DNA of 64,000 nucleotides. It comes from an uncultured Actinomycetes bacterium (GTDB lineage: Bacteria; Actinomycetota; Thermoleophilia; RBG-16-64-13). How positions within the stretch are numbered: the first letter of the stretch is position 1; the number at the start of each line of letters is the position of its first letter. The notes beneath the pieces were generated by a model that had not been told where the DNA came from, ran no database searches, and saw only the letters and a program-made list of their open reading frames with translations. Shown piece by piece: positions 4,740-37,073 of this stretch. The position numbers and the translations under genes were made by a program. Location of the stretch: the NCBI GenBank assembly GCA_963775295.1, contig CAVZIK010000006.1:762218-826217 (forward strand), written 5' to 3'.

Positions 4740-4797
4740 GGCGAGGCCGGTCCGGGGTGGCGGCAAATATCGATAGTAGATTTGAGTAATTACCCCA

Positions 4798-4872: not shown

Positions 4873-5136
4873 TTATGTCGCGCCCAACGACGGAATGCAG
4901 CTTTCCCGCGGCGAAGGAGAAAGGCATGACGCTACTCTCCCCAGACTAGACTCCGGCCAGTGAAAGCCTGACCTGCGCGGCAACGTTGAAACGTCCTGCT
5001 TCGCCCAAAGGCTGTTTTCGATTCTAAGGGTACTTGCTGTTTCAGGATTGACGCGGTTAGCAGGAGCTTTGGCTCTATCAAGTGACGTAACTCAAGGGTA
5101 CTTGACGTACATCCCTCGCGAGGTCCAGGCCCGCTG

Positions 5137-6192: not shown

Positions 6193-6288
6193 CCCCGGGT
6201 CCCTTTCGTGGTCGACGACTGGCAGGCGCTTCACTCTTGATAATTATCCTCTTTTGGGATGCTGTGACGGGGTCCTTATCGTCAGGGC

Positions 6289-6549
6289 ATGCAAAAGCTC
6301 TATTCACCCGGTGACCGGGACAAGCTGCTCTCCCTGCTTCGGCAGGCTAGGACCGAGGCCGGGCTGACTCAGGAGCAGGTGGCCAAGACCCTTGGTCGAC
6401 CGCAGAGCTTCATCGCAAAGTACGAACTGGGCGAGAGGCGCTTGGACGTCCTTGAGCTTCGCAGGGTCTGCGAGGCCCTCGGGATCACCCTCCCGGACTT
6501 CATCTCCCGACTGGAAGAGCAACTCAGTCGACCGGCCTCTTCGTCCTAG
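6289..6549 (+). CDS. XRE-family (Cro/C1-type) HTH transcriptional regulator
   Basis: LRQARTEAGLTQEQVAKTLGRPQSFIAKYELGERRLDVLEL is the canonical XRE HTH. Confidence 0.8.
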   Translation: MQKLYSPGDRDKLLSLLRQARTEAGLTQEQVAKTLGRPQSFIAKYELGERRLDVLELRRVCEALGITLPDFISRLEEQLSRPASSS

Positions 6550-6773
6550 ATCGCCAAAACGAAGTAGGCCGACGAAGGGCCCGGTTCTTGCGCTCCATTG
6601 CCTTTTTGGACCCTCTAGAGATGCATTCGGCCCACCCGCACTAGCAGGGTCCCGGCTGGTCACCGGCGCTAACGCCCCCACATTGCCTCCGCTGTTCCTG
6701 CGTCCAGTCAACTGCTCCGAAACGAGCGTTAATTCCCTTCCAGAAGTATTCATGCATGGAGGGAAGGCGGGGC

Positions 6774-7991
6774 ATGGCCGAGACCATCTACACGCGCCTG
6801 GAAGATAGGATCAGGAAGGCCCGCGACGACCTGGCGGGCAGGGGCAGTCTGTTCGGGGCAGACGAGCTAGACGCGGAGTACCGGACCTTCACAGCCCGGT
6901 TCGGTCCGCCCACCCTGGCAGCACTCTCCGATGCCGACCTACTCCAGGTAATGACACCGGGCGGCGACCACAGTCTCCCCGACTGGCTTGAGTCCGAGGG
7001 CAAAGAGCACCAGGCCTTCGGCTATCCGCGGATGTCACAACAGCACGGTCTCGGCCTGTGGTTCGATGAAGTCGAGCATTGCTGGTATCGCGTCGCCCGG
7101 GATTGGGAGTATCTCCGCGACGAAACCGGTCATAAGCGCGTCACTCAGTCGGAAGCCCTAGATGTTTCCCGGCGCTGGCGTGACCATCTGTCGAAAGCCG
7201 CGGAGCTGTTAGGGGCCCTTCCCGAGATCGCCGGAGACTCTGTCTATCTGAAGCTGCAGGACGAGCTTGAGGTTATCGCTCCGGCGGTAGTCCATGAACC
7301 CTGGGCTCACAAGTATCTGGCCATGTGTTTCCCCGATCGTCTGGATCAGTTCCATGATCCTCGGGAACAACGCTATCTCCTCCTCCGGTGTCTAGAGATG
7401 CCACCGCGGGCAGAGGACCCCCAACCCTTAGCCTACATCTGCGGCGGGAGGTTCTCTCGGATGGCCCGGGAGCTGCACATGCCCATGAACCATCTCTGTC
7501 TCTCGCTGCAGTTCCTCTTCGGTGGTCCCCATGCCTACTGGCTTCTGGAGACAAGCAAGCAGGAATGGCGCGAGTTCATAGGCCAAGGATTCATCGATCT
7601 GGGTTGGCCCCAGGTCGGCGAGCTTGAGGTGCGCACCGATGTCCCGAGCACTCTGTGGAAAGAGTCCTTGTGGTGCAAGCTGAGAGAGATCTACCCAGGC
7701 ACCGCTCTCGGTCAGCCCATGGCGGAGTTGTTCTGGATAGCACGGCAGGCTGCACCAAGAGACGTGATCCTTGCTCACCAGCAGGGACGCGTGCTTGGCC
7801 TTGCCGACATCACCGGCCCCTACCACTACGAACCCGATTCCGATCATCCCCACCAGCGGGCCTTGCGGGAGCTGCAGGTCGAGCTAGCGGGGATCAGTGT
7901 TCTTGGTCTTCCCCAGACTCCCATCCTTGACCTGCGCAAACATCCTCGGGTGATTCTCGCCGTCGAAGAGGCCTTGGCAGGCGCCCTATGA
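6774..7991 (+). CDS. hypothetical protein (405 aa), first gene of a 3-gene overlapping operon
   Basis: ORF track 6756; RBS GGAGGGAAGG lies before ATG 6774; no motif I can name. Confidence 0.55.
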   Translation: MAETIYTRLEDRIRKARDDLAGRGSLFGADELDAEYRTFTARFGPPTLAALSDADLLQVMTPGGDHSLPDWLESEGKEHQAFGYPRMSQQHGLGLWFDEVEHCWYRVARDWEYLRDETGHKRVTQSEALDVSRRWRDHLSKAAELLGALPEIAGDSVYLKLQDELEVIAPAVVHEPWAHKYLAMCFPDRLDQFHDPREQRYLLLRCLEMPPRAEDPQPLAYICGGRFSRMARELHMPMNHLCLSLQFLFGGPHAYWLLETSKQEWREFIGQGFIDLGWPQVGELEVRTDVPSTLWKESLWCKLREIYPGTALGQPMAELFWIARQAAPRDVILAHQQGRVLGLADITGPYHYEPDSDHPHQRALRELQVELAGISVLGLPQTPILDLRKHPRVILAVEEALAGAL

Positions 7992-14616: not shown

Positions 14617-15156
14617 TTGACGAGAGCTGAGAGTTTGCCAGAACCCAGACGAGTAGCAGATATCAGTCGGGCTCAGAGCGGGAGCTTCGAAGCCTTTGTG
14701 AAACAGCACTCAACTCCTCTCGTTCAGACCCTGACGTTCGTTGCCCTTGATCGCCAACTGGCAGAGGACGCGGCTCAGGAGGCGTTCGTCCGGCTGTACT
14801 TGCGCTGGGACCAGGTCGAGAAGTTGCGGGACCCGGTGGCCTGGCTCTACCAGGTTGGGATCAACCAATGTAAGGACTACAGGCGCAAGCTTGGTCGGAT
14901 AGCCCGTCTCGTGGAACGTCTCGGTGCTGAAGCTCGCGAGCCCTCTGACGGCGAAACCTGGCTTCCTCAGCGTGAGTTCGTCGATGTTCTCAAGGCGCTT
15001 CCTCGTCGTCAGCGGACCGCGGTCGCCCTCTTCTACCTAGGCGACCTATCGGCGGTCGATGTTGCGTCGGTCATGCGCATTACTGAAGGGGCGGTGCACA
15101 GTCATCTTCACAAAGCCAGAGAGGCTCTGAAGGATGTGCTGGAGGTGAAGATATGA
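14617..15156 (+). CDS. ECF (extracytoplasmic function) sigma-70 family factor, copy 1
   Basis: TTG start; region 2 (…EDAAQEAFVRLYLRWDQV…WLYQVGINQCKDYRRK) and region 4 (…RTAVALFYLGDLSAVDVASVMRITEGAVHSHLHKAREAL). Confidence 0.9.
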   Translation: MTRAESLPEPRRVADISRAQSGSFEAFVKQHSTPLVQTLTFVALDRQLAEDAAQEAFVRLYLRWDQVEKLRDPVAWLYQVGINQCKDYRRKLGRIARLVERLGAEAREPSDGETWLPQREFVDVLKALPRRQRTAVALFYLGDLSAVDVASVMRITEGAVHSHLHKAREALKDVLEVKI

Positions 15157-16412
15157 GACCGGAAGAAAGAGACCAAGAGATACGCGAACTCTGTCGGAAG
15201 AACGCCCCCCATGTCGACCCGGCTGCCTTCTCCCGCAAGGTGAAGGCACGGACAGATCCAAGAAGAAGAGCGCGACGGAGAATGGGGCGAAAGGTTGGCG
15301 TCGCATTTGGGGTGGTGCTCCTGCTGGCCGGTGTCGGGATCGGCTCTCTGGAACTCGTCAACCATCTGACGCACGGGCAACGAGTAACCCTGATTCTGAA
15401 CGACGATTCCCCAAACGGAACAACAACGACTTCCCACCAACCAGTTCCGGGTGGGTTCTCCAGAGACAATACCTTCGGGTTCGACGTGCGCCAGCCCTTC
15501 ATCGATCATGACGCGACGCAGGCGCTTGGCGACCCCGCCTACAAGATCGTCACCACCTGGGTCGCCATCGGGAACCGCCAGAGTGTCCCGCTATCCTTCA
15601 AGCTCAGCGACCTGACCCTCATCGATGCCTATGACCAACTCGCCTACCGGGGCGTGCGGCCGGAGCAGTACAACTACACCGAGACCGTCACTCCCATCTG
15701 GACCCCCGCGCTCAAAGAGGGGACCATAGCTCCCGGCGCTATTGAAGGCGGGTACGTGTCCTGGAAGGTGCCTTGGTATGTCTGGCCGCAGGAAGTGTTC
15801 TACGCGTTCAAGGGCAAGGGTGGTGGAGGCGGTGGCCAGGGGTGGATGACGCCCATCTTCCCCGACCTCAACGCGGGCAATCGCTTCTATCTCTCAATCG
15901 GGAAGCTCCTGTATCGGGGTGTGGTCGATGTGCCCAAGGATGAGGACTTCAGGCCAGAAGCGGCGATCACCGTCGCCGACTTTGCCAAGATGGTTGTCAT
16001 TGCCGCGGCCCCGTATAACAGAGCCACATTCTCCTCTCCCGCCGGTTATATCGAGGAGGCGGCAAGGACAGGCTTTGCCACCTGGGGGTCAAAGACTGCC
16101 TCGTCCACACTGACACGACTGGAGGTCGCGCTGGCGGTAGCCGTACTGGCCAAAGAAACGTTGACTGCTCCTCCGGCAGGCTACAAGTTTCCGCTCACCG
16201 ATGTCCCGCAGAGCGCCGAGAGTGACCTTGCCTTGCTCACCTACAATGGCGTCGTCGCCGGGACCACCGCGATCAGCTTCAGTCCGGCGGACGCATGCTC
16301 ACGCGGTCAGGCCTGCAGGATGTTGGCCTTGGTACTCGATCCCAGATTCCGCGAGGAGGAGTCAAGGGCAACGACCTCTCTGCCGTCCGAGGCGACGACT
16401 ACCACTCGCTAG
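15153..16412 (+). CDS. anti-sigma factor, single TM, extracytoplasmic domain with poly-Gly stretch
   Basis: ATGA overlap with the sigma stop; N-terminus EERDQEIRELCRKNAPHVDPAAFSRKV then a TM helix VAFGVVLLLAGVGIGSL. Confidence 0.7.
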   Translation: MRPEERDQEIRELCRKNAPHVDPAAFSRKVKARTDPRRRARRRMGRKVGVAFGVVLLLAGVGIGSLELVNHLTHGQRVTLILNDDSPNGTTTTSHQPVPGGFSRDNTFGFDVRQPFIDHDATQALGDPAYKIVTTWVAIGNRQSVPLSFKLSDLTLIDAYDQLAYRGVRPEQYNYTETVTPIWTPALKEGTIAPGAIEGGYVSWKVPWYVWPQEVFYAFKGKGGGGGGQGWMTPIFPDLNAGNRFYLSIGKLLYRGVVDVPKDEDFRPEAAITVADFAKMVVIAAAPYNRATFSSPAGYIEEAARTGFATWGSKTASSTLTRLEVALAVAVLAKETLTAPPAGYKFPLTDVPQSAESDLALLTYNGVVAGTTAISFSPADACSRGQACRMLALVLDPRFREEESRATTSLPSEATTTTR

Positions 16413-16454: not shown

Positions 16455-16514
16455 GCACCCCTACGCGCACCCCTACCCAAATGACACCTGACGATACAGG
16501 GTGGACAGAATGGA
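16455..16514 (+). promoter_or_regulatory. copy C of the recurring ~55-nt motif
   Basis: GCACCCCTACGCGCACCCCTACCCAAATGACACCTGACGATACAGGGTGGACAGAATGGA. Confidence 0.4.
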
Positions 16515-16704
16515 CTGGCGGCTCAGGACTTTCAGAACGCAGTAGTACGCAGAAGTACCCCATGAACAGTCCGAGGGCGGTTTCCTAAACCTTGTGTCGC
16601 GCGTTCGATTCGCGCCGAGGGCACCTCGAAGATTCAGACTTATCCCTGCAAATGAGCCCTTTCCGGTTCCTCCGCTTGCGGCCTCAGACTGCCCAAAAGG
16701 CCGT

Positions 16705-16766
16705 TTGCACCCCTACGCGCACCCCTACCGGAATGATAAACGGTGATACACAATGGACAAAATGGA
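16705..16766 (+). promoter_or_regulatory. copy D of the recurring ~55-nt motif
   Basis: TTGCACCCCTACGCGCACCCCTACCGGAATGATAAACGGTGATACACAATGGACAAAATGGA; followed by CAGTAAAGGTAAT as in copy B. Confidence 0.45.
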
Positions 16767-16779
16767 CGACGGCAGTAAA

Positions 16780-16843: not shown

Positions 16844-17383
16844 TTGACGATAGCCAAGGAGTCGCGAGACTCGACGCGGATAGCGGACAGCAATCGAGCG
16901 CAAAGTCTTAGTTTTGACGCCTTTGTCAGACGGTATTCGGTCCCCCTGATTCAGACACTCACCTTCGTTGCCCTGGACCGCCAACTAGCGGAAGATGCGG
17001 CGCAGGAGGCGTTCGTCCGACTGTACCTGCGTTGGGACCAGGTGGAGAAGCTGGAGGACCCAGTGGCCTGGGTCTATCGGGTCGGAATCAACCAATGCAA
17101 GGACTATCGGCGCAAGCTCACTCGGATAGCGCGGCTCGTCGAGCGTCTCGGCGCTGATGCTCACGAACCCTCTGACAGCGAGCCCTGGCTTCCTCGTCGT
17201 GAGTTCATCGATGCCCTCAAGATCCTTCCTCGCCGTCAGCGGACCGCGGTCGCCCTCTTCTACCTGGGCGACCTATCCGCGGCCGATGTGGCCTCGGTTA
17301 TGCTCATTACTGAAGGGGCGGTGCACAGTCACCTTCATAAGGCACGAGAGGTTCTGAAAGATGTGCTGGAGGTGAAGTCGTGA
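16844..17383 (+). CDS. ECF sigma factor, copy 2 (close paralog of 14617-15156)
   Basis: TTG start chosen by alignment with copy 1; the region 2 and region 4 blocks are nearly identical. The track ORF starts at 16592, but that stretch holds the regulatory motifs. Confidence 0.85.
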   Translation: MTIAKESRDSTRIADSNRAQSLSFDAFVRRYSVPLIQTLTFVALDRQLAEDAAQEAFVRLYLRWDQVEKLEDPVAWVYRVGINQCKDYRRKLTRIARLVERLGADAHEPSDSEPWLPRREFIDALKILPRRQRTAVALFYLGDLSAADVASVMLITEGAVHSHLHKAREVLKDVLEVKS

Positions 17384-18960
17384 AGATAGACGAAACGGAC
17401 GAGAGGCTGCAAGAACTCTGCCGCGAGAACGCCCCCCATGTTGACCCGGTCACCTTCTCTCGCAAAGTGGACGCAAGGGTGAACCCAAGAAGAAGGTCTC
17501 GGCGAAGGATGGCACGGAAGGTTATCCCGGTCTTCGTCGTCGTGGCCCTGCTTGCCGGCATCGGGATTGGCTCTCTTGAGCTGCTCAACTACCGAGCGCG
17601 ACAGCACCAGGTGGTAGTGATAAATGATGATTTCGGGACCGGCCCGACGGGTGGCACCGAAACGCCCTTGCCGCAGACTCGTGAGCTCAAGTACGGGGAG
17701 GTAGCCACAACCTACGAGGGGCTTGAGATTGTTGTGACCGTCGCTCCGACCTCGGGTACTTCCTACTCCGCGCGGCCTCCTGCTGTTGCCACCGGGGAGA
17801 AGCGTCTTCAAAGTCAGATAATCATCAAAAGCCCAAGCGGCAAGGCGCTCCCGTATGTCCCCTACGACCTGATTCTCCGGGATAAGGACGGGCGGTCTGT
17901 CAGACGCGAGGGGATTCAGAGCGCACAGGTAGAGGAAGTCGGCGGGACGCGATTGGAATCTGTGACCTGGGTAGTTCCTGCCGATTTCGAGGTGAGAAAT
18001 GTCGAGTACGGGATTGCCAGTGGACTGCACGGAGAGAACTTCATCTTCACCTGGGGTCCGGGTTCGCTTGAGCCCGGGCAGTCAGGATACGTGGTCCTGC
18101 AGTCGCTGCCCGAACTGCGCCCGAAGGAAGTGGCCTTTGTCGAGTTCCGCAAGGACGATGACCCTCCCCGAGTGCTCGATGCGGCTGCCAACCCGGAAGC
18201 GGTCAAGACTCTCGTCTCGGATTATGAGCAGACCGAGCTCCTACCTGGCGAGGGATACCCTGGAGTGCGGACTGACCTCGAACTCCTTTTCCACATGAAG
18301 GACGGCGCCTACTTAAGGGTCTGGGTCATGCAGGATGGTCACGACATAATCGAGGACCCTCGAACCGGCAACGTCGAGAACCCGCCAGAAGCCATGGGAT
18401 GGGCTCCGGAGCTTAATGCCACGGCCCGCGGGCTCTACGAGAGTCTGCCGCTCTTCTCGGGTGCCAAGGGCACCGATACCACCTCGACGACGACTGCCCC
18501 GTGGCAGGTCCAGCCAGTCTCTAGCCTCGATTGGGTGACTGAGGGGCTTTCACCCGAGGAGGTAGTGCAAAGGATTCAGAAGCAGCAAGGAAAGAACTCT
18601 GGTCCCATCTATCTTCCGAGGTCGTTTCCCTCGGGCTTCTATGCACCCGAGACCTACGCTTCTTCGCCCAATCCGGCACCGGGCGGTCACGGAGACAAGC
18701 CGGGATACAGCTTGTACCTGACCAACGGGAAAGATTACATCTCTCTCAACGTCAACTTTGCGGGCGACGTCGGCGACGTGACCTGGGTCGACTCTGGCGT
18801 TTCCTTTGAGGGCGGGTCCTTCAGGCGGGTGAATGACGTGGCCTTCCTCTCAGGTATCGGTGCTGATGATTCGACGGTCGACATCAACGGCTCCCTCACT
18901 GACCACAGCTATCAGGACGAGGTCTTCTTCATCGCAAAGTACCTGGTGAGGGTCCAATAG
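17380..18960 (+). CDS. anti-sigma factor copy 2 with a large (about 450 aa) extracytoplasmic domain
   Basis: GTGA overlap with the sigma stop; N-terminus DERLQELCRENAPHVDPVTFSRKVD is paralogous to 15153; TM helix IPVFVVVALLAGIGIGSL. Confidence 0.7.
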   Translation: MKIDETDERLQELCRENAPHVDPVTFSRKVDARVNPRRRSRRRMARKVIPVFVVVALLAGIGIGSLELLNYRARQHQVVVINDDFGTGPTGGTETPLPQTRELKYGEVATTYEGLEIVVTVAPTSGTSYSARPPAVATGEKRLQSQIIIKSPSGKALPYVPYDLILRDKDGRSVRREGIQSAQVEEVGGTRLESVTWVVPADFEVRNVEYGIASGLHGENFIFTWGPGSLEPGQSGYVVLQSLPELRPKEVAFVEFRKDDDPPRVLDAAANPEAVKTLVSDYEQTELLPGEGYPGVRTDLELLFHMKDGAYLRVWVMQDGHDIIEDPRTGNVENPPEAMGWAPELNATARGLYESLPLFSGAKGTDTTSTTTAPWQVQPVSSLDWVTEGLSPEEVVQRIQKQQGKNSGPIYLPRSFPSGFYAPETYASSPNPAPGGHGDKPGYSLYLTNGKDYISLNVNFAGDVGDVTWVDSGVSFEGGSFRRVNDVAFLSGIGADDSTVDINGSLTDHSYQDEVFFIAKYLVRVQ

Positions 18961-26491: not shown

Positions 26492-26983
26492 TTGAGCCAC
26501 GAGGTAGAGTGGCCAAGCGCATTCGACGCTATCGTCCACGCACACACCGCCCGACTGGTGAAGAGCTTGAGCCTCATCACCCTTGACCGGGGACTGGCCG
26601 AGGATGCAGCTCAAGAGGCCTTCCTCCAACTGCATCTTCACTGGCATGATCCAGAAGTGAAGGACCCCGTTGCCTGGCTCTACCGGGTCGGCATCAATCG
26701 TTGCAAGGACTATCGCCGGGCCATGGGCAGAGCCACTCGTCTGAGGCAGCGTTTAGCCGGGAGCTTCGAGGAGTTCACGCCCCCAGCCTGGACGCCGGAC
26801 CCCGACCTTATGAGCATTCTTCGCCCCTTACCGAAGCGCCAACGCACCGCAGCCTCTCTCTTCTACCTGGCCGGTTTCTCCACCTCTGAGATCGCACGAG
26901 CCATGGACATCTCTGAGGGGGCCGTCGGCAGTCATCTCCACAAGGCCCGAGAAGCACTGCGCAAGATCTTGGAGGAACAGTGA
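26492..26983 (+). CDS. ECF sigma factor, copy 3
   Basis: TTG start 8 nt after AAGAGGAG; region 2 AEDAAQEAFLQLHLHW…WLYRVGINRCKDYRR; region 4 QRTAASLFYLAGFSTSEIARAMDISEGAVGSHLHKAREAL. Confidence 0.85.
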   Translation: MSHEVEWPSAFDAIVHAHTARLVKSLSLITLDRGLAEDAAQEAFLQLHLHWHDPEVKDPVAWLYRVGINRCKDYRRAMGRATRLRQRLAGSFEEFTPPAWTPDPDLMSILRPLPKRQRTAASLFYLAGFSTSEIARAMDISEGAVGSHLHKAREALRKILEEQ

Positions 26984-28842
26984 TGGACAGAGGCGATCTG
27001 GACGAGCGCCTGCGTGAGGTCTATGAATCTAATGCGCCGATGGTCGATGAGACCGAATTTGCTTCCCGGCTAAGAAGGAAGTCCAATGTTCACCGGACTC
27101 ATCTGGCCCACGACGCTCGCCCTCGGCGGACTCTGATCATCGCCCTTGCGTCCCTGGTCCTAGTCGCGGCGGTCGCCGTTGGCGCGTACGAAGCAGTACT
27201 TCACCTGGAGCAGGGCAAGAGGGTGGTGGTCATCAACGACGACAGCATGAGCCCCAACGGTTCGGCTGCAGGCGCAAATCAGGTGCTACTCGAAAAGGCA
27301 CTCACCTGGATCGAGGCGGCCCCGACCAAAGTCACATTTGGTCCCTACACGATTGCCTACGGAGCGCAGGCTAAGGTGGCCGAGGTGACGGTCGATCCTC
27401 ACCCTAGCGGCGAGCCGCTCCTCTCTGGCCCGGTCTGGTGGTCGTCGGACACCGACTACTACATTCAGGACGGTACAGGTGGCCCTCCCCAGCACGTCAC
27501 CCCGAGTATGGCGCAAGAGATGAGCACGCAGACCTACCCGGGTGCCTCATCAGGGGCCAGTCTCTTGGCCATCTTGAGGATGGTCTTCGATCCTCATCGG
27601 CTTCTACAAAAGTCGCTGGTCACAAAAGCAGCGAAGGAAGCAGACGGCACGTGGGACCTCGAGGCCACGATCACCGCCAGGGATCTCATCGGGCTGGACA
27701 TTCCCGATCAGATTCTCTTGGCGGGCACCGGGATATCTCCCTCGAAGGTTCTTCGGACCACTCTCAAGCTGGGCGCAGACGGTGGCATCCACGCTATGTC
27801 GACGCTATTCAGCGATTCGGCCTCAGATGCGACAAACTATGTCTGGGCAAGGAGCTCGACTGAGCCTTCTCTCCCGAGTGCGTCGGTCGAAATGGACCAG
27901 ACCCTCCGACAGAGCGCTTTTCTCGGGGGCTGGCGGGCAAGCCTTGCAGATGCGGCCAAAGACATCGGCTTCCCCGTCTACTCGCTGGGCGAGACCTATC
28001 TCGGCTTGAGTCTGCGGCTTATACACGTCGAACTCACCTACAAACCGACGATTGCACTCTTGCTCGAATACGACCCGGGCCAGAAGGCGGCTCCTCTCGG
28101 GACCGCGACCACTGTAGCCGCTGGGGAGACGACCACTAGCGGAGCTAGCGGGGAATCCCTCGCCCCTGGGGGGTTCGTGCTCTTCGAGTATCCCGACTCC
28201 AACGTGCCCGATGGCGAGAAGTCGTTCGTGGCCAAGAAGATCTTGCTGAAGACGGTTTCGCACGGTGGCGAGACGTACTCCATCTACACCACGCCGAAAG
28301 GGAAGCCTGGCCGCTCGATCCTCGTGAAGGCAGGTACGACCTACGTCTCCATCGAGCGCTCCGGAGGCGGGACGGGGGATGCCACGGATGAGTTAGTCGC
28401 CGCAGCCGAGGCGCTTCAAAGAGTCGGTACCTCCGACGATCAGTCGTCGTCCACAAGCCAGTCTGATTCGCGCACTCTGGCTGGTCTGAACGCTGTTCGC
28501 CTGGACATGGCTCCACGCGTGGGAGTCCATCTGCAGGCACACCTAGGCCAGGCCTCCGGTTCGGACAGTGTGTCGCTCCGGCTCATGGTCAAGAACAACA
28601 GCGACTCCGCCTTCTCTTTCAGCGTGGATGACTTCACCCTCTACATTGACGGCTCCCCGCTAAAAGCAAAGGCCCAGGTTCACCAGCCGGACACGGTGCT
28701 AGTCCAGCCCGGCGACACGGCCGTCGTGGAGGGAGGCTACTTCTGGCTTCTGTCGAGTCCGACTTCAAAGAGCAGTGGTCTGTTCTACGCTTCGAGCGAC
28801 CCAGGGAGCGCCGGTTTCAACAAGATGGTGAGCGCACAATGA
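26980..28842 (+). CDS. anti-sigma factor copy 3 with a large (about 540 aa) extracytoplasmic domain; C-terminal domain shared with 19116-21455
   Basis: Overlaps the sigma stop; N-terminus DERLREVYESNAPMVDETEFASRLRRK then a TM helix LIIALASLVLVAAVAVGAY. Confidence 0.7.
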   Translation: MMDRGDLDERLREVYESNAPMVDETEFASRLRRKSNVHRTHLAHDARPRRTLIIALASLVLVAAVAVGAYEAVLHLEQGKRVVVINDDSMSPNGSAAGANQVLLEKALTWIEAAPTKVTFGPYTIAYGAQAKVAEVTVDPHPSGEPLLSGPVWWSSDTDYYIQDGTGGPPQHVTPSMAQEMSTQTYPGASSGASLLAILRMVFDPHRLLQKSLVTKAAKEADGTWDLEATITARDLIGLDIPDQILLAGTGISPSKVLRTTLKLGADGGIHAMSTLFSDSASDATNYVWARSSTEPSLPSASVEMDQTLRQSAFLGGWRASLADAAKDIGFPVYSLGETYLGLSLRLIHVELTYKPTIALLLEYDPGQKAAPLGTATTVAAGETTTSGASGESLAPGGFVLFEYPDSNVPDGEKSFVAKKILLKTVSHGGETYSIYTTPKGKPGRSILVKAGTTYVSIERSGGGTGDATDELVAAAEALQRVGTSDDQSSSTSQSDSRTLAGLNAVRLDMAPRVGVHLQAHLGQASGSDSVSLRLMVKNNSDSAFSFSVDDFTLYIDGSPLKAKAQVHQPDTVLVQPGDTAVVEGGYFWLLSSPTSKSSGLFYASSDPGSAGFNKMVSAQ

Positions 28843-29381
28843 GGACCATTCAAGAACAGGGCATCGATTCCGAGCGCCGTTCTCAGGCTCGCAGCGGGAC
28901 CATGTGGCTTCGCTATCTCGGGATCATACAGGAGTGTGGCATGGTGCGAAGCACAAGACTTGGACAACGTCAAGCGATGCTAACTGCCGTGGCTATCCTC
29001 GCCTGGGCTTTGATCGTCGCTGTGGTTTTCGGCGTCCTTGATATCACACTTCCTGGGGGGAGCGGAGCTGCACTTAGTTTGGTACTCATCCCCGTCTATC
29101 TGGCTGCGCCTCTGGCGGCACTACTATTTGCCGCAATTTCGCGGACGACTGATGAGCGACGGGTTGAGAATCGGGCCACTCTTCTCTCCGTGATACTCCC
29201 GATAGTCCCAACGGTGCTTGTGGCACTGTGGGGAGAGAGTCACTACAATCTATCTGTCGGCGACGCGGTCATTGGAGCAGTTGGAATCATTGCCGCTGGA
29301 TCTATATTCGAGGTGCTCATCGGCTACTGGTTTGCCGGGTTTGGCCTTCGATTCGCGAAAACTCGGCACCTTCGCATGTGA
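28839..29381 (+). CDS. small polytopic membrane protein (paralog of 41779-42072; shared WLRYLGII motif)
   Basis: ATGA overlap with the anti-sigma stop; four hydrophobic helices. Confidence 0.5.
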   Translation: MRTIQEQGIDSERRSQARSGTMWLRYLGIIQECGMVRSTRLGQRQAMLTAVAILAWALIVAVVFGVLDITLPGGSGAALSLVLIPVYLAAPLAALLFAAISRTTDERRVENRATLLSVILPIVPTVLVALWGESHYNLSVGDAVIGAVGIIAAGSIFEVLIGYWFAGFGLRFAKTRHLRM

Positions 29382-30231
29382 CCCTATTGGATCTTGGCGT
29401 CGTGCGCAGAGCACATGCTTGTTGAGGTCAACCCGCCTGATACTTGGGCGGGCTGACCTCGCAAAACTGAGGCTTTCAAAAACTCCAGATTACTCAGGTT
29501 GTCGGCGAATACCATTGAATCAACGTATGGATCTTGGGTTCCATCAAGGTTCCTCTGCTATGCGGTGGACTTGCAGGAGCACGGCTGGGTGGGTATGTCG
29601 CCTCACTAGACCAGATGGGATCGATGCACTCCCGCCGAGTGACCTATCTAATCGATCAGCCGTCAGGCTCCGGTGGCGTTTCGTCCGAAAAGGTTGACAC
29701 GGTCCGAATAACAGCAACCGATGCAAACGGTAATGAGGGCTGTCATACATTGAAACCATGATTGCTCATTTGCAGGCAACGCTGAAGCGATAGGACATGC
29801 CTTCGGGTCAATTCGAACCGACACAAGGATTAGGAATTCCCGAGATTAACGTCCGCTGTGTGCCACAGAGGCCCGTGTGCTCGTATAACGTGCCCGCCGC
29901 GCATCGGGATGTATCGCCCCCATTCGCGGGTTTGGCTGTCAGTTTGGCTGTCAACCTGACCGTTCGTTACTCAAAACCCTGTTCGTCTGAGCAATGGCGC
30001 GGCTTGTCCCAACGCAGGGCGTCCTTTGCAGCGAGGCGAGGGACTGGGGGCTTCCGGAAACTCCGCGGAATCGCTCAACCATGCTCTTGGCCGGCGCTTG
30101 TGTTCGATAACCTAAAAGTTGACCACTTGGAGGCCGTTCGTTCATCGAAAAGTTGACCACCTTCAATACAAGTCCTGTACCGTCTTCCCCTCTTGGGAAC
30201 TGGCGGGACAGGGGGAAGGCATGTGCTGAAG

Positions 30232-31683
30232 ATGGTCGACGTGGAGTTCATCAAGAAGAAGCGCGAAAACGAGGGCTGGCCGATCCGCAAGATCGCCCGG
30301 CAGCTCGAAGTGTCCAGGCAGACAGTGCGAAAGGTGCTGGCCTCCCCGGCCGAGCCGTTTCGTTATCAACAGAGAGTTTCCCGTCCCCGTCCGGTCATGG
30401 GACCCTATCTCCCCGTGATCGAACGCTGGCTCACCGAGGATGAGACCGCTCCTCGCAAACAGCGTCACACGGCCAAGCGCGTCTATGACCGTCTGGTCGC
30501 GGAATACGACTTCCCCGGTTCAGAGGTGACCGTGCGCCGGGCGGTGCGCAGCCTTCGGGGTCGGCGCACCCAGGTCTTCGTGCCCCTGGAGGCGGTGCCG
30601 GGCAAAGTGGCTCAAGCTGACTTCGGCCAAGCTCACGTGATGATCGCCGGGGCGGTGCAGAAGGTCTTCGTCTTCTGTCTGCGGGCCAAACACTCCAAGG
30701 TGTCATTTGCCGTGGCTTATCCCACCGAGAAGCTGGAAGCCTTCCTGGATGGTCACGTCAGGGGTCTTGAGTTCTTCGGCGGGATCTTCCGTGAGATTTG
30801 GTATGACAACCCCAAGACCGCCGTCAGCAAGATCCTTTCCGGCCCGTATCGCATCGAGCACGAGCACTTCAGTCGCCTGCGCGCCCACTACCTCTTTGAC
30901 AGCTCCTTCTGCACTCCGGGAGAGGCCCACGAGAAAGGCTCGGTGGAGAACCTGGTGGGATACGTGCGCCGGAATGCCCTCGTGCCGGCGTCGAAGCCCT
31001 TTGCTTCGCTGGAGGCGCTGAACCTCCACCTACGCGCCTTCTGCGAGCGGGAACGGGTTCGGCATGCCGGCGGGTGGGCTCTGGAGGAGACGGCACTGAA
31101 ACCGCTTCCTCTCCACGCTTTCCGGGCCGCCACCTCGCGGCCGGTTTCGGTCTCCAAGACCGCTCTTGTGCGCATCGACCACAATCGCTACTCGGTGCCG
31201 GCCGTTCACGCCGGCCGCCTGCTTCGGGCCGAGGTCTACGTGGACAAAGTGGAGATCTACGTCGCCGACGCCCTCATCGCTGCCCACCCCCGCAGCTACC
31301 AGCGCGGGGAGACCTTCCTTGAGCTCTCCCACTATCTCCCCGTCTTTGCCCGCAAGCCCCGGGCGGCCGGATGCTGCGCCGCTCTTTCCCAGGCCGATCC
31401 GGTGTTCATTCGCACCCGGGACCTGCTGCTGCGTGAACCGGGCGGATACCGGGTCTTCGCCGAGATCCTCATGTTGGGGATGCGATTCGATCTGGATGTT
31501 CTGGCCCAAGCCCTCGAAGAGTGCCTGAGCTCAGGGAGACTATCGGTCGAGGGTGTCCACCAGCGCTGCCTTAACCTGATGCATGTGCCCCCGGGCCCAG
31601 TGATGGTGCCTGAGCTGTTGGCTCTGCGCCTTCCCCGGCCGGATCTTAGCCGCTATGACGCCCTTACGGCGGTGGCCCGATGA
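30232..31683 (+). CDS. istA: IS21 transposase IstA
   Basis: HTH N-terminus plus DDE core (…WYDNPKTAV…); alternative start GTG 30223 (track 30193); the stop overlaps the istB start. Confidence 0.9.
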   Translation: MVDVEFIKKKRENEGWPIRKIARQLEVSRQTVRKVLASPAEPFRYQQRVSRPRPVMGPYLPVIERWLTEDETAPRKQRHTAKRVYDRLVAEYDFPGSEVTVRRAVRSLRGRRTQVFVPLEAVPGKVAQADFGQAHVMIAGAVQKVFVFCLRAKHSKVSFAVAYPTEKLEAFLDGHVRGLEFFGGIFREIWYDNPKTAVSKILSGPYRIEHEHFSRLRAHYLFDSSFCTPGEAHEKGSVENLVGYVRRNALVPASKPFASLEALNLHLRAFCERERVRHAGGWALEETALKPLPLHAFRAATSRPVSVSKTALVRIDHNRYSVPAVHAGRLLRAEVYVDKVEIYVADALIAAHPRSYQRGETFLELSHYLPVFARKPRAAGCCAALSQADPVFIRTRDLLLREPGGYRVFAEILMLGMRFDLDVLAQALEECLSSGRLSVEGVHQRCLNLMHVPPGPVMVPELLALRLPRPDLSRYDALTAVAR

Positions 31684-32438
31684 ACGCGGAAGTGGTCGCA
31701 GCCCAGGTCAAGCTCTACGCGCAGGAACTCAAGATGCCGGGATTGCGCGTCCACTTCGAGGAGATCGCCCGGGAGGCACGAGGCACCGGGGAATCCCACG
31801 AGGCGTATCTCGTTGCCTGTCTGCGCGCCGAGATCGAGTCCCGGCGGGAGCATCGGCTCCAAGATCGCTTAAAACAAGCCCGCTTTCCTCACCGCAAGAC
31901 CCTGGATGAGTTCGACTTCGCGTTGGTCCCGTCCGTGCCCAAAGAGGAAATCCTAAGCCTGGCCCAAGGTGAGTTTGTCCGCACCCGAGAGAACGTCATC
32001 CTTCTGGGGGCAAGCGGCACCGGCAAGACCCACCTGGCGCAAGCCATTGGACACGCCGCCATCTACGCCGGCGCTCGGGTGCGATTTACGAGCGCCGTTG
32101 CACTGGCGCAGGAGCTGCTCGCGGCTCAGGATGAGCATCGTCTGCCTCGGTATCTCAAGAGCTGGCAGAAGACCGACCTGGCCATCGTGGATGAGCTCGG
32201 ATATCTGGGTCTGGGGCCGGGAGGCCCCTTGCTCTTTCAGTTCTTCGCCGAGCGTTACGAGAAAGGATCTGTGCTCGTGACCTCCAACCTGGAGTTCTCC
32301 CGCTGGAGCGAGGTCTTCGGCGATCCGGTGCTGACCGCCGCCCTTCTTGATCGCCTCACCCACCACAGCCACATCCTGGTGTTCGAGGGAGAGTCCTACA
32401 GGTTCAGGGAGAGCCAGAAGCAGAAGACGAGATCTTAA
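31680..32438 (+). CDS. istB: IS21 ATP-binding helper IstB
   Basis: Walker A ILLGASGTGKTHLAQAIG; Walker B DLAIVDELGY. Confidence 0.9.
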   Translation: MNAEVVAAQVKLYAQELKMPGLRVHFEEIAREARGTGESHEAYLVACLRAEIESRREHRLQDRLKQARFPHRKTLDEFDFALVPSVPKEEILSLAQGEFVRTRENVILLGASGTGKTHLAQAIGHAAIYAGARVRFTSAVALAQELLAAQDEHRLPRYLKSWQKTDLAIVDELGYLGLGPGGPLLFQFFAERYEKGSVLVTSNLEFSRWSEVFGDPVLTAALLDRLTHHSHILVFEGESYRFRESQKQKTRS

Positions 32439-32860
32439 GAAGTGACTGGGGTGGTCAACTTTTCGATGATCGAGGTGGTCAAGTTTTCGGTTGACGAACA
32501 CAGCGCTGTTATGAATTTGGGCAACGGTGCGGTCGTGAACGTCGGAAAGAAAATGTCGCAATTTGCGAACTTTGTCGCGGTCTCCGCCCCCATCGAGTAA
32601 GAAATGCAGCCGTGCCGTACACCTCGTGCATGGACGGACTCCGGACCGTCAAGCCGCCACCAGGCATATGCAACCGACTGAGAAAGGGGGTCAGCTGTCA
32701 ACAAACCAAGGAGCAAGCACGAGGGCACCAAGTCACAATGAGAAAGGCCGTAGGCAGGGTGTCCAAGGGAAAGAGGCCTGGCAGGAGCCCTGGAAGCGGT
32801 CTGGCCTCGGGCTTGCGCGATTCCACCACGTTGGTGTCGATAGATCCGAAGGAGGGATAA

Positions 32861-33649
32861 GTGAAACGCAGATACGTCTTACTCGTGCTATTGTGCGCGT
32901 TCGTCGTGGTGTTTGTGACGGCAAATGGGGCAGTAGCATTTGCCCAGCCTGGGTCTGAAGTAGTTGCCGCGACCGCGCTCGGTACTGTCGAACGCTTGGC
33001 CCCAAGTGACGGCATGGTCCGCTATCGCGCCATTCTGAACGACGGCTGCTGTGCGTTTTTGTTGATGACCGACGCAAATGGATCGCTAGCGGTGAGGTTT
33101 TTTGCCACGCCCGAGGCCTTTGAGGCCGCGAAGATCGCTGCGGGCATCGACAGCGCTCAGAAACCAGCGGGCGAGAGAGACTCAGCCTCTTCGATGGTAT
33201 CGGATGGCGGATCGACGAGTATTTCAAGTCCGACGGGGCTATCTCCGCTCTCGATGGGTCCCGGATGGCATACCGTCAGGGCAGAAGGACTAATAGGCTC
33301 TGGCATCTACCCGGCCAACGACCTCCAATCCATGCTGACTTATTACTCTGACAGCGGGGTTTCGCAGGGCTCCTGGTGGGCGAACGCAATTTGGTGGCCG
33401 TACTGGACCTACGATGGTAGTTCCAGCAACTCGCTGTATAAAGCGCCTGATAGCTCTTACTACAGATACGACTGTACCCAGCATTTCAAAGTGACGAGTG
33501 GCGGAACGACGTACCATAACTCTATACAGAACACTATCCGTGGGTATTCGGGTGGCAGTTGGGGCGTGTGGTTCGTGATAAACATTGATTCGCGACTCAC
33601 CAACTACTGGTCCTACGGCTACTCAAACAACAACGGCTGGATGTACTAG
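32861..33649 (+). CDS. secreted Tyr/Trp/Ser-rich hypothetical protein (lower-GC island cargo)
   Basis: RBS AAGGAGGGA plus GTG; signal peptide LLVLLCAFVVVFVTANGAVAFA; local GC clearly lower than the flanks. Confidence 0.55.
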   Translation: MKRRYVLLVLLCAFVVVFVTANGAVAFAQPGSEVVAATALGTVERLAPSDGMVRYRAILNDGCCAFLLMTDANGSLAVRFFATPEAFEAAKIAAGIDSAQKPAGERDSASSMVSDGGSTSISSPTGLSPLSMGPGWHTVRAEGLIGSGIYPANDLQSMLTYYSDSGVSQGSWWANAIWWPYWTYDGSSSNSLYKAPDSSYYRYDCTQHFKVTSGGTTYHNSIQNTIRGYSGGSWGVWFVINIDSRLTNYWSYGYSNNNGWMY

Positions 33650-33848
33650 GCCTGTGTCCGCAGGTTCTGCCAGGCCACGGCCAGGTCGGGCTGGTTGTCA
33701 CTCACGGTTGATGTTGGCATAGTAGGGCCAGCGTTTGAGTGACTGAATCGCGCATGCGTGTCGTCGGGCTGCTCGAGATCCGGCGACACACATGCATCTG
33801 CTTGAGTGATGTGCTGAAAGAGACCATGCACGGATGCTTGGAGGGAAT

Positions 33849-34253
33849 ATGAGGCTGCGACCTGTTGCGTTTCTCGCCCTTGTAGTTTGCTTAACCCTGT
33901 TCGCTATCGTTTTACTCAGCGCCTGCGGCTCAGCCAATCCGCTTCAGGCTCAGATTGAGACTAAGGTATCTGTCGATGAGGCCACTAACCACGCGACCAT
34001 CCAGATCAAATCGACCGGCGGCTGGATCGACATAGCCTTGTTTATGACCGATCCGGAGGGCAAGCGCCAGCCTCTCCTTACTGGTAACGTCGGCGCGGCC
34101 GGCGGGACCATTGACACCGGCGAACTCTCCCCCGGCATCTACACCTATATGGTCTACGCCAAGCCCCAGGAGCCCGGAGGCAGTGCCATACTGCCCGATA
34201 GCGAAATCAGCCCAGAAAACCTCGCGGCCACCGGGACGTTCACCATCCCGTAA
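33849..34253 (+). CDS. putative lipoprotein (lipobox LLSAC)
   Basis: ORF track 33834; ATG 33849 followed by a signal peptide and lipobox. Confidence 0.5.
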   Translation: MRLRPVAFLALVVCLTLFAIVLLSACGSANPLQAQIETKVSVDEATNHATIQIKSTGGWIDIALFMTDPEGKRQPLLTGNVGAAGGTIDTGELSPGIYTYMVYAKPQEPGGSAILPDSEISPENLAATGTFTIP

Positions 34254-34339
34254 GGGGAAACGCGTGATTGGTCCGGCCCCCAGAATGAGTACTGTCTGAA
34301 GTGTTAGGGTTTCCACGAACGCAAAGGAGACCCAGGAAC

Positions 34340-34483
34340 ATGAAACAGTCGAGATTCACCGAGGCTCAGATCGTCGCCATCCTCCAGGAAGCAGATGCCC
34401 AAGGGGCGTCGGCAAGAGAGGTGTGCAACCGTCACGGAGTCTGCGAGCAGACCTTCTATCGGTGGCGCAGACACGACTCCTGA
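34340..34483 (+). pseudogene. remnant of an IS3-family transposase OrfA (HTH N-terminus only, 47 codons)
   Basis: MKQSRFTEAQIVAILQEADAQGASAREVCNRHGVCEQTFYRWRR matches the IS3/IS407-group OrfA N-terminus; no orfB follows. Confidence 0.6.
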
Positions 34484-34552
34484 TCTCGCCGAAGTGGTGC
34501 GGGGGGAAAGGCGCATTGTGTCATTAAGCTTGGGGTCAAGCTGAAACTGTGG

Positions 34553-34813
34553 GTGAAGGCTGGGCATGTTGCCGACGTTGGGACGGTCGACATCTGGTTT
34601 CGCGACACCCATGACTACGGGACCGCACCTGGCAAGCGGGTCGACATATCAGACAGGTGGTTTGTTTGGAAGATCAACGAGCCTTTTCAAGAGGTCGGCA
34701 AGTTGCGGGGGGCGCTACGAGACGCGGAGATCGGCGTGGTGAAGAACCCCTACGCCATAGTCAATCGAATGAAGACTGGGGAGTACGGGGGCTTTTATCC
34801 GCGGTTTGAATAG
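34553..34813 (+). CDS. hypothetical small protein
   Basis: ORF track only. Confidence 0.3.
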   Translation: MKAGHVADVGTVDIWFRDTHDYGTAPGKRVDISDRWFVWKINEPFQEVGKLRGALRDAEIGVVKNPYAIVNRMKTGEYGGFYPRFE

Positions 34814-34869
34814 TGAATCTCGTACCCATGATGCAACCCCGTGACGCCTGGCGGAACGTCCTGCGACGC

Positions 34870-35778
34870 CTACCCAGCGCCGAGTAGTGCGTCCATCCGC
34901 GCGGCCGTCTCACCCCGTTGCTCAGGAAGAACATGGCTGTAGACATTCAAGGTCGTCCCGATCTCTGAGTGCCCGAGAAACTCCTGCACCAGTTTGGGGT
35001 CGAGCCCCTGGGCTAGGAGCAGTGTCGCGCAGGTATGCCGGAGGTCATGGAAGCGCATGATGCGAAGCCCAGCGTCCTTCAGGATCTGCTTGAACCGATG
35101 GCTAAGGACCGATCCGTTGAGGGGTTGCCCCTTGTCGGTCGTGAAGACCAGTCCACCCCACTCGTTCCACTCCGGCCCGGCTGCAAGTCTCTCTGCTGCT
35201 TGACGGGCACGGTGAGCCTTGAGTGCTGTTACAGCTATCTTGGGGATCATGATGGTGCGCCGACTCTGCTTGGTCTTAGGTTCGGCGAGCGCATACTCTC
35301 CGTCCAGCCGGTTGAGAGCATGATGCACTGAGAGGGTGGCATGCTCCAGGTCGAGGTCCTGCCAGCGAAGACCAAGGATCTCCCCTTTGCGCAGCCCAGA
35401 GGATAGGGCGAGGATGAAGAGGGCCTCCAGACGATCGCCAGCTGCCGTCTCCAAGAACGTTCTTGCCTCCTCGGGAGCAAGCGGAGTCACCTGCTTCTGG
35501 GCTCCCCGGGGTGGACGAACGAGCTGAGCGGCGTTGCGGGCCACAGAGCCCATGCGTAGACCCTCGTTCAAGGCCGCCCGCGAGGTGGCATGGATGATCT
35601 GGACCGACTGGCCCGAGAGGCCTTCCTTCTGCTTCTTGTTGAGCAGCGCCTGGACCTCCCGGGTGTGAGCTTCGCCAGCTTGATCTTGCCCAGGTGCGGT
35701 TTCAGATGGAGCCGGACTGCCTGCTCGCTTCTCATATAGGTAGAAGGCCGGACATATGATGAGGTAGAGGCGTAGCAT
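34870..35778 (-). pseudogene. tyrosine recombinase (phage-integrase family), 5'-truncated: catalytic and core-binding domains are present, the N-terminal arm-binding domain is absent, and the first ~17 codons are read from the regulon motif sequence
   Basis: Catalytic motifs …RRTIMIP…, HDLRHTCATLLLAQG, …LGHSEIGTTLNVYSH; the N-terminus MLRLYLIICPAFYL is the complement of CCGGACATATGATGAGGTAGAGGCG. Confidence 0.7.
35746..35770 (+). promoter_or_regulatory. regulon motif copy 7, downstream half only (GGCCGGACATATGATGAGGTAGAGG); the -35-like half is missing at the island junction
   Basis: Matches copies 3, 8 and 9 from CCGGACAT onward; the upstream GGTAATGCTTTCGG part is absent. Confidence 0.4.
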
Positions 35779-35832
35779 GAAACAGGCGCGCGGCAGTGAT
35801 GACCCTGTTTCGCCCGAGAGGAGCTTCAGAGG

Positions 35833-36012
35833 ATGAAGATCATCTTCCTGGCCCTCGCCATCTCGATGATGATGGCTGGGTTTGCACCGCTTGCTGCGGA
35901 CAAGGAGTCAGCGATAGCAGTCCTTTTGGCCGGCGCAACATCAGCCGTCCTGGGCCTAGAGGCGGCACAAGAGGAGAATCATCGGGAAATGATCGAACTG
36001 ATGGAGCCGTGA
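35833..36012 (+). CDS. possible small membrane protein (59 aa; MKIIFLALAISMMMAGFAPLAA…)
   Basis: Not in the track (below 60 aa); RBS AGAGG 4 nt upstream; ends 2 nt before the next gene. Confidence 0.3.
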   Translation: MKIIFLALAISMMMAGFAPLAADKESAIAVLLAGATSAVLGLEAAQEENHREMIELMEP

Positions 36013-36014
36013 CC

Positions 36015-37073
36015 ATGTGGTGTGAGAGCATGACAAGTGCCGAACGGATGGACGCCCTGTGGGAGGGTGAACGGCCCGACCGGGTGCCGGTTACGCCGCT
36101 CCTGCTGGGCCACGCCGCTGTTGTCTGTGGCGAGCCTCTCGCCCGCATCTACGACGATGCTGAGCAGAGCTTTCGCTGCCAGACGCTGACACTCGACATG
36201 TATGGCTTTGACGGGATTGTTTTCTGTCCAATCAGCGCGGCCAGCGTCTCGGCATTCGGCGGGGACATGGCGTTCCCGCTCAAGAAATACCAGGGAGCTC
36301 CGTTCGTGACGCGCACTCCTGTTCAGATCGAGGATGACGTCTACTCACTCCAAGTGCCTGAAGACATCACCAAGGTAGACGCCCTAGCCATTGCCCTAGG
36401 CTTGGCCCGCAGACAGGCTGAACGTGGTCTGAGGGTCAGCATGGCTATCCCTGGTCCCCTCGAACTAGCGGGTCAGCTCTTGGGCACAGACCGCCTGATG
36501 ACGTGGCTTCTGAAAAAGCCCGAGCTGGTACACCACGTGTTGGAGAAGGCTTTGGCCTTCGACATCAGAGTCGCTGAGCATTACGTGAAGGAGTTCGGAG
36601 CAGAGAGGTTGGTGGGCTTCCTGGCGACTCCCACATCTTCCAACGCGCTCATTTCTCCCAAGCAGTTTGAAACCTTCGCGCTCCCTTATTTGCAGAAGGT
36701 GTTCGCCCGGATATTGGAACTCGGCGTGAAGCCTTTCCTCGTCCATATCTGCGGCGAGCACAACAAGAACCTCAAGTACTGGCAGCAGGTTCCCATGACC
36801 AAGCAGACCATACTTAGCTTCGGTCGGGAGGTTAGCTTGGCGACGGTCATGGACATGTTCCCCGATCAGATCATCGCCGGCAACGTCGATCCCACGCTCA
36901 TCCAGGAGGGGAAGGCGGAGGAGGTGCTCGAGCAGTCTCGCGAGTGCATCGAGACGGCGAAGGATCACACGGCCCGCTTCATTCTCATGGCAGGATGCGA
37001 CGTGCCCCCGCAAGCGCCTCCGGTCAACGTGTTCCAGTTGGTCAAGGCCGCTAGGGAGTATGGGAGGTATTAG
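36015..37073 (+). CDS. uroporphyrinogen-decarboxylase (URO-D) family protein / MtaA-CmuA-like methyltransferase
   Basis: 352 aa from ATG 36015; overall URO-D fold pattern (…RPDRVPV…, …FDGIVF…, C-terminus …ILMAGCDVPP…); the family call is tentative. Confidence 0.6.
   Translation: MWCESMTSAERMDALWEGERPDRVPVTPLLLGHAAVVCGEPLARIYDDAEQSFRCQTLTLDMYGFDGIVFCPISAASVSAFGGDMAFPLKKYQGAPFVTRTPVQIEDDVYSLQVPEDITKVDALAIALGLARRQAERGLRVSMAIPGPLELAGQLLGTDRLMTWLLKKPELVHHVLEKALAFDIRVAEHYVKEFGAERLVGFLATPTSSNALISPKQFETFALPYLQKVFARILELGVKPFLVHICGEHNKNLKYWQQVPMTKQTILSFGREVSLATVMDMFPDQIIAGNVDPTLIQEGKAEEVLEQSRECIETAKDHTARFILMAGCDVPPQAPPVNVFQLVKAAREYGRY

Follow-up and report, generated by a model that had tools for sequence, protein, structure and literature searches.

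Whether a run of mobile and accessory DNA in a bacterial chromosome represents one decayed island or a set of unrelated pieces is the question raised by positions 29400-35780 of the DNA analysed here, a stretch of 64,000 nucleotides (nt) from contig CAVZIK010000006.1 of an uncultured Actinomycetes bacterium (assembly GCA_963775295.1; hereafter, the window). An initial annotation, made from the sequence alone, had described this interval as a lower-GC genomic island carrying insertion sequences (IS) and genes for exported proteins, and ending on the right in a truncated tyrosine integrase fused to one half of a recurrent promoter-like motif. The interval is a patchwork in which at least five mobile or accessory segments, unrelated to one another, lie side by side, and not a single low-GC island; the explanation that we consider probable is that separate mobile pieces adjoin an integrase pseudogene, which a short-homology deletion has joined to half of a promoter. 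The locus is an ordinary mobile-element graveyard plus a neat deletion scar, in which genome decay can be mapped to the base; as a base-resolution example of how the decay of an integrated element may strip a neighbouring operon of its promoter, it would illustrate a known kind of event, and its interest is modest.

The interval comprises, from left to right, a non-coding stretch, an IS21 copy, a two-gene cassette, 47 codons of IS3 type, the 3' two-thirds of an Imm26-like gene and the 3' three-quarters of the integrase gene. The features, with their coordinates in the window and the length of proteins in amino acids (aa), are as follows.

29382-30098 (no strand): non-coding stretch between the gene of a 180-aa membrane protein and the IS21 copy; overlaps the lowest-GC 717-nt window
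30099-32502 (plus strand): apparently intact IS21-family IS, with istA at 30232-31683 and istB at 31680-32438
32508-32836 (plus strand): region upstream of the cassette, with the palindrome TCGCAATTTGCGA at 32556-32568 and a degenerate motif-like site, AGTAAG-N13-CCGTACACCTCGTG, at 32596-32628
32837-34268 (plus strand): conserved two-gene cassette, secreted protein 32861-33649 and 134-aa lipoprotein 33849-34253
34340-34483 (plus strand): IS3-family OrfA stub, 47 codons followed by a stop, with no OrfB
34511-34813 (plus strand): Imm26-like gene fragment, the 3' two-thirds of a gene of about 165 aa, truncated at its 5' end, about 64 codons being gone
34857-35753 (minus strand): tyrosine integrase pseudogene, codons 97-378 of a 378-aa gene, with a 1-nt frameshift
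35748-35764 (plus strand): -10-like half of the promoter-like motif; its first 6 nt, CCGGAC (7 with the preceding G), are at the same time the last integrase bases, and the joint falls between 35753 and 35754
35833-37073 (plus strand): operon remaining downstream of the half promoter, with a 59-aa reading frame whose N-terminus is hydrophobic (35833-36012) and an MtaA/CmuA-like gene of the URO-D family (36015-37073)

The integrase pseudogene and its joint with the promoter-like motif

The open reading frame (ORF) annotated as the integrase (34870-35778, minus strand, 302 aa) contains a complete catalytic domain (PF00589, E 1.4e-30) and is without some 96-115 N-terminal residues of its relatives of about 378 aa, which add a PF14659 domain; no PF14659 match was obtained, complete N-terminal arm-binding and core-binding domains are absent, and the loss of the N-terminal part noticed in the initial annotation is borne out. 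In the protein alignment, homology begins only at about residue 37 of the annotated ORF. The 90% cluster of this ORF includes a full-length integrase of 378 aa (P0121, encoded on contig L001), and comparison of the two genes at the nucleotide level (window 35753-34857 against L001 1956-2853; 89.8% identity over 897 nt) places the lesions precisely. Codons 1-96 are missing, the homology to L001 stopping exactly at GTCCGG (window 35748-35753); moreover, where L001 reads CCCC the window reads CCC (the plus-strand G run 35661-35663), 1 nt having been lost after codon 127, and upstream of this frameshift the second frame reads VRPSTYMRSEQAVRLHLKPHLGKIKLAKLTP. The frameshift had been overlooked at first sight; an upstream start in another frame, named initially as a finding that would speak against truncation, does recover 31 further integrase codons but no full-length gene.

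Once the frameshift is repaired, 11 of 295 aligned positions differ from P0121 (stop codon included), and the reading holds an HDLRH box and a C-terminal LNVYSHV stretch with its tyrosine, as is characteristic of the catalytic part of tyrosine recombinases. Between the remnant and L001 the ratio of nonsynonymous to synonymous substitutions (dN/dS) is 0.055 at a dS of 0.44, with a single frameshift; such a low value indicates that the gene was under selection for nearly all of the divergence, and that its inactivation is recent.

The annotated 302-aa protein is a chimera: codons 1-8 are antisense promoter DNA, codon 9 lies across the joint, integrase DNA supplies codons 10-39 in the wrong frame, and the integrase frame is followed only from about codon 40. 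The initial annotation had the first 17 integrase codons read through the motif; the start of the ORF does run through it, but only the first eight codons are antisense promoter DNA, with the ninth at the joint. The entry should be marked as a pseudogene.

No N-terminal integrase sequence was found elsewhere in the 64 kb, and a scan of viral contigs with the full-length integrase returned a single match, of 23% identity. A second, differently broken integrase copy is present in the same genome outside the window (P0123), in which residues 1-190 give way to unrelated sequence; its overlap with the remnant comprises 94 residues, 5 of which differ, so that P0123 is to be regarded as a paralogue and not as a reciprocal product or as the other half of a split gene. 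A split integrase of the SSV1 type is ruled out, the two partial copies overlapping by 94 residues and differing from each other. Taken together, P0123 and the remnant in the window indicate that the genome once held at least two elements of this integrase family, both of which are now dead.

At the joint, the -10-like half of the motif (CCGGACATATGATGAGG, 35748-35764) matches at 17 of 17 positions, and beyond the joint the DNA continues to resemble the other copies. A scan of the window for this half, allowing up to three mismatches, gave six copies, all on the plus strand, against 0.11 expected; the other five begin with CCGGAC in four cases and with CCGGAA in one, and a G precedes in four of the five. 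The integrase likewise has a G beside the shared hexamer, GTCCGG on the minus strand being CCGGAC on the plus strand. In all the other copies GGTAAnGCTTTC stands 13-14 nt upstream; at 35748 integrase DNA occupies that place instead, and the absence of the -35-like half (GGTAA...TTTC in the other copies), reported initially for this seventh copy of the motif, is correct.

Short-homology (microhomology) illegitimate deletion is a general bacterial mechanism. Its signature would be recognizable here in the single copy, at the joint, of a 6-7 nt sequence common to both inferred parents; the integrase parent is observed (GTCCGG in L001), while the intact promoter parent at the locus is deduced from paralogous copies of the motif. 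The sequence of events would have been the following: the integrase would derive from a small integrative element with an HTH_17 gene, one or more primase-like genes, an ORF of about 348 aa and the integrase gene, int, at its end; the body of this element would have lain between int and the promoter of a neighbouring chromosomal operon; and a single deletion, with both end points within the shared (G)CCGGAC, would have eliminated int codons 1-96 together with the remainder of the element and the promoter's -35-like half. The remaining -10-like half would now stand in front of the small ORF and the MtaA-like gene, an operon that would be out of its regulon if both halves are needed. The earlier suggestion of a decayed integrative element recombined into a promoter survives in part: the integrase is a decayed remnant whose 5' loss ends within the motif, the homology to L001 stopping at CCGGAC; a single element extending from 29.4 to 35.8 kb, on the other hand, does not stand.

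As to the motif itself, at least nine full copies occur, on the plus strand and upstream of plus-strand genes, including those of SLH-domain proteins and of a serpin; one copy, at 26257, lies about 235 nt upstream of a gene for a sigma factor of the extracytoplasmic function (ECF) type (26492-26983), which is followed by genes for a 619-aa anti-sigma-like protein and for the 180-aa membrane protein that forms the left flank of the interval. This arrangement suggests, as its simplest reading, an auto-regulated ECF-type promoter. No copies of the motif were found in about 200 kb of compared loci from metagenome-assembled genomes of Actinomycetota. Promoters of the ECF type need both halves; if the motif is one of these, the small ORF and the MtaA-like gene have probably lost control by the regulon. 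The copy at the joint would be a half site made by deletion, and should be left out both when normal regulon members are counted and when the left boundary of the motif is defined. Three pairs of ECF sigma and anti-sigma-like genes are present in the window, at 14617-16412, at about 16850-18960 and at 26492-28842.

The side on which the body of the element lay can be read from its relatives. In all five related contigs (L001, L024, L025, L026 and L027) the accessory genes, namely an excisionase-like HTH_17 gene, primase-like genes (DUF3987, DnaG zinc ribbon, or Prim-Pol plus AAA_25) and the ORF of about 348 aa, are located 5' of int. On the 3' side, L024, whose integrase is 68% identical, has a tRNA-Arg(CCT) gene 190 nt past the int stop codon, followed by ordinary chromosomal genes, and three of the related contigs end within 150 nt after int. 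The accessory genes on one side, and the tRNA and contig breaks on the other, indicate that int is the terminal gene and that its 3' end lies at the boundary of the element; as int is oriented leftward in the window, the main part of the element lay to its right, that is, in the DNA now lost next to the promoter, and whatever lies left of 34857 falls outside the element and is not its cargo. The layout of the relatives is presumably comparable to that of P4-like satellites or of actinomycete integrative elements of the pSAM2 type. The resemblance to small tRNA-targeting integrative elements is found in these relatives, with their HTH_17 gene, primase-like gene, int in last position and, in L024, a tRNA-Arg gene beyond it; the locus in the window, in contrast, keeps only int codons 97-378 with the frameshift, and is without xis, primase, att repeat or tRNA.

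Several points weigh against the deletion just described. Beyond the int stop codon, L001 and the window remain alike for no more than 13 nt, which implies at least one further rearrangement or a module boundary at that place. The promoter-side parent of the joint, as deduced from paralogous copies, and the function of the motif as a promoter are both putative. Being situated in a homopolymer, the frameshift could stem from faulty assembly. Finally, no close relative was found for the flanking genes, which are singletons in exact-cluster look-ups, with no relative above 70% identity in scans of genomes and metagenomes; the same scans with the MtaA-like protein returned only relatives of at most 70% identity without common neighbours.

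Competing accounts of the interval and of the joint

The account that comes closest is the original one, that of a single decayed integrative island from about 29.4 to 35.8 kb, with the IS elements and the cassette as cargo and the integrase as its right end. All the pieces are indeed of mobile or accessory type and adjoin one another; in a relative the cassette is found within an islet flanked by tRNA-Arg(ACG); and the cassette and the integrase have metagenomic relatives at about 90% identity, while the flanking genes and the citrate synthase of the source genome, whose best non-self match is 76% identical, do not. The lineage is poorly sampled, the citrate synthase matches that carry names, at 61-65% identity, being spread over several phyla. 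The amino-acid identity of 89-96% between the mobile pieces and their metagenomic relatives is consistent with horizontal spread, without being proof of it.

Composition does not favour such an island. The drop in GC content described initially disappears on calculation: the interval has a GC content of 0.596 against 0.600 for the whole window, the 32nd percentile of equal-sized windows, and this flat profile gives no support to a compositionally distinct island. A flat profile was one of the two findings named initially as refuting the island, and taken as a whole the interval essentially shows it. Within the interval, values exceed the mean in the IS21 copy (0.622) and in the integrase remnant (0.621), and fall below it in the two-gene cassette (0.567) and in the non-coding stretch to the left of IS21 (29382-30098; 0.558). 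Among all 717-nt windows of the 64 kb, GC is lowest (0.534) in the one that begins at 29151 (29.15-29.87 kb), and dips of equal depth occur at 12-14 kb. At third codon positions the GC content (GC3) of the two cassette genes, 0.65 (secreted protein) and 0.70 (lipoprotein), lies at or close to the range seen in genes nearby. The gene of the 180-aa membrane protein (28839-29381), at the left edge of the interval, has an unusually low GC3 of 0.56, compared with 0.65-0.77 in the other genes measured, and overlaps the lowest-GC spot of the window.

Nor are the boundaries those of an island. No bracketing direct repeats or att-like pair were found around 29.4-35.8 kb, and the search for a direct repeat of the junction sequence (35746-35770) near 29.4 kb, proposed as a check in the initial annotation, found none on the other side; the tRNA scan of the window gave no intact tRNA and the Rfam scan was empty, so that in place of the att repeats or tRNA expected at one end of a genomic island there is only a tRNA fragment 18 kb away (16579-16624). 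Moreover, the body of the element lies 5' of int in the five relatives, that is, on the other side, which speaks against the integrase being the end of an element that spans the interval; the IS21 copy, the cassette, the IS3 stub and the Imm26-like fragment each have their own homology breakpoints and different neighbours elsewhere; and among the compared contigs the cassette never occurs with this integrase. A single island is thus an unlikely explanation of the interval.

Inversion or translocation would give the same joint as the short-homology deletion, from which it is indistinguishable when judged from the 64 kb of the window alone; the 5' part of the integrase and the -35-like half of the motif would then survive elsewhere in the genome, which does contain another partial integrase copy, P0123. 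This copy, however, reaches residue 190 or thereabouts and differs at 5 of 94 positions, as expected of a paralogue and not of the reciprocal product, and no reciprocal joint is present within the 64 kb; we consider this kind of rearrangement quite unlikely. It is very improbable that the joint or the frameshift is an artefact of assembly: a frameshift in a homopolymer of 3 or 4 nt is a common long-read error, and the source is a single contig of 3.56 Mb, but a false join over only 6-7 shared bases is most improbable, NCBI and ENA both list the ORF, and the truncation is independent of the frameshift. Lastly, the suggestion that the motif was the attachment site of the integrase, and the joint the product of site-specific recombination, is hardly credible, since, although the joint coincides exactly with a conserved motif hexamer that also occurs in the integrase gene, the crossover would lie inside the int reading frame (codon 96/97) and destroy the gene, the junction sequence is not repeated on the other side, L001 has no motif, the 68%-identical relative adjoins tRNA-Arg(CCT), and the overlap of P0123 (residues 1-190) with the remnant shows that the gene was not split in the manner of SSV1.

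The two-gene cassette

Among the pieces that lie side by side with the integrase pseudogene, the cassette is the only component that merits further study, being rare, with two genes that always occur together and evolve under purifying selection. Both products recognized at the outset, a Tyr/Trp-rich secreted protein and a lipoprotein, are confirmed: the former (32861-33649) has a signal peptide ending in AFA/Q and carries 15 Tyr and 10 Trp in its last 143 residues, and the latter (33849-34253; 134 aa) has the lipobox LSAC. Neither protein has a match in Pfam or NCBIfam; for the secreted protein the AlphaFold model is poor (pLDDT 57) and a Foldseek search against the PDB gave no match.

Homologues of the secreted protein form only three clusters among 5.8 billion proteins. 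At the nucleotide level the cassette is about 90% identical to L002, L017 and L018, and 76% identical to L020 and L021, the homology being confined to 32837-34268. The 134-aa gene is found downstream of the secreted-protein gene in every contig that extends past the 3' end of the latter, and the dN/dS of both genes, 0.18-0.32, denotes purifying selection. The cassette occurs in four unrelated contexts, with its genes always paired. In L020 it lies between phage portal, terminase and methylase genes and IS3 rve fragments, and in L022 and L023 beside an NmeDI-like nuclease gene and toxin-antitoxin genes. In L017 and L018 it is contained in an islet of 2.65 kb, without integrase, that extends from tRNA-Arg(ACG) to an 88-nt direct repeat of the 3' part of that tRNA. 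The islet of L017, bounded by 2810-2897 and 5502-5618, holds the cassette and a 97-aa ORF, its 88-nt repeat being made of the 3' part of the tRNA plus the terminator; it is a miniature integrated element. From these occurrences the cassette would appear to move as a whole from one mobile context to another among related organisms.

The region upstream of the cassette bears on its possible regulation. L020 has a full copy of the motif, GGTAAC-N14-CCGGACATGATA, about 300 nt upstream of the cassette (L020 9693-9727), and L022 a half motif, CCGGACATATCATC, 128 nt upstream of it (L022 1702-1719); when the upstream sequences of L002, L020 and L022 are aligned with that of the window, the full motif of L020 and the half motif of L022 fall on the degenerate site of the window at 32596-32628. 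The chance expectation of such matches is estimated at about 0.001-0.003 in the approximately 1.4 kb of upstream sequence examined. A tentative proposal, which we regard as possible and no stronger, is that the cassette would be a self-contained mobile unit with its own envelope promoter motif, joining the envelope regulon of the host wherever it has landed, be it at a prophage end, in a tRNA islet, in a defence-gene cluster or in the interval described here; the shared CCGGAC core may also favour break points with mobile DNA. In three contexts, including L002 and L020, the palindrome TCGCAAnTTGCGA (window 32556-32568) is conserved some 300 nt ahead of the gene for the secreted protein; it may be an operator.

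The cassette invites comparison with morons and tRNA-flanked islets, which it resembles in adjoining phage portal and terminase genes in L020, and tRNA-Arg(ACG) with its repeat in L017; it differs from them in that the copy in the window has neither phage genes around it nor att repeats, and in that a copy of a promoter motif of host type precedes the cassette in relatives.

Insertion sequences, gene fragments and neighbouring modules

The IS21 copy conforms to its family in every respect, and the initial description of an intact element with a 5-bp target duplication is upheld. Its terminal inverted repeats are TGTGTTCG.../...CGAACACA, with 33-nt arms at 30099-30131 and 32470-32502 and second copies inside; the target duplication, GCGCT at 30094-30098 and 32503-32507, can be read directly; and istB follows istA directly downstream, the products scoring above the NCBIfam cut-offs (IstA, NF033546, 249.7 bits against 160; IstB, NF038214, 268.9 bits against 200, and PF01695 with E 8.6e-70). 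The overlapping istA and istB genes, the ends TGT...ACA with repeated internal copies and the 5-bp duplication are all shared with the family; the copy in the window has no unusual feature, and is new as a sequence variant only. The IstB cluster has 64 members at 90% identity or more, mostly metagenomic. With its fresh target duplication, this IS21 is apparently intact and recently inserted, at a non-coding site some 360 nt ahead of the gene for the secreted protein; when its flanks are rejoined in silico, they contain no long ORF, and give no similarity to any compared locus and no Rfam or tRNA matches.

Of the IS3 element only a fragment is left. The stub (34340-34483) matches PF01527 (HTH_Tnp_1; E 8.9e-13) over model positions 1-46 of 75, and its best annotated matches in tblastn are transposases of the IS3 family, in agreement with the initial assignment, although on a piece this short NCBIfam cannot tell an IS3 OrfA from an IS66 TnpA. 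No remnant of OrfB (rve) was found by tblastn in the interval; with OrfA partial, OrfB lacking and no terminal inverted repeats identified, the stub is a fragment and not an element. It is followed by the Imm26-like fragment, which was absent from the initial list of features: 179 representatives were retrieved at E<=1e-3, mostly of 160-168 aa and aligned over their residues 81-165 or so, and tblastn carries the homology out to residue 65. The name is based on weak matches to the Imm26 Pfam family in some of the relatives.

To the right of the joint, the 59-aa ORF and the MtaA-like protein are both annotated in the source genome, their exact sequences being present in the protein collection. 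The MtaA-like gene belongs to PF01208 (E 5e-52), TIGR01463 remaining below its cut-off; the small ORF (35833-36012) has no match in Pfam or NCBIfam.

Two further observations concern the left-hand part of the window. A second element-like module, without integrase, occupies 2010-7991; it starts with an IS256/Mutator transposase (2010-3263), followed by an HTH_17-like ORF (3358-3507, minus strand), by a homologue (3531-4739; E 1e-42) of the 348-aa ORF located ahead of int in L024 and, at 6756-7991, by a homologue of a 382-aa ORF of L024 (E 4e-55). The tRNA fragment at 16579-16624 (plus strand) is an orphan piece of 46 nt of tRNA-Arg(CCT), from the anticodon loop to the 3' end, and is 100% identical to the tRNA of L024; it looks like an att remnant, and fits neither the integrase remnant, 18 kb off, nor the left-hand element. 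The piece is flanked by direct repeats of 61 nt (16455-16515 and 16707-16767), a third copy of which is located at 14478.

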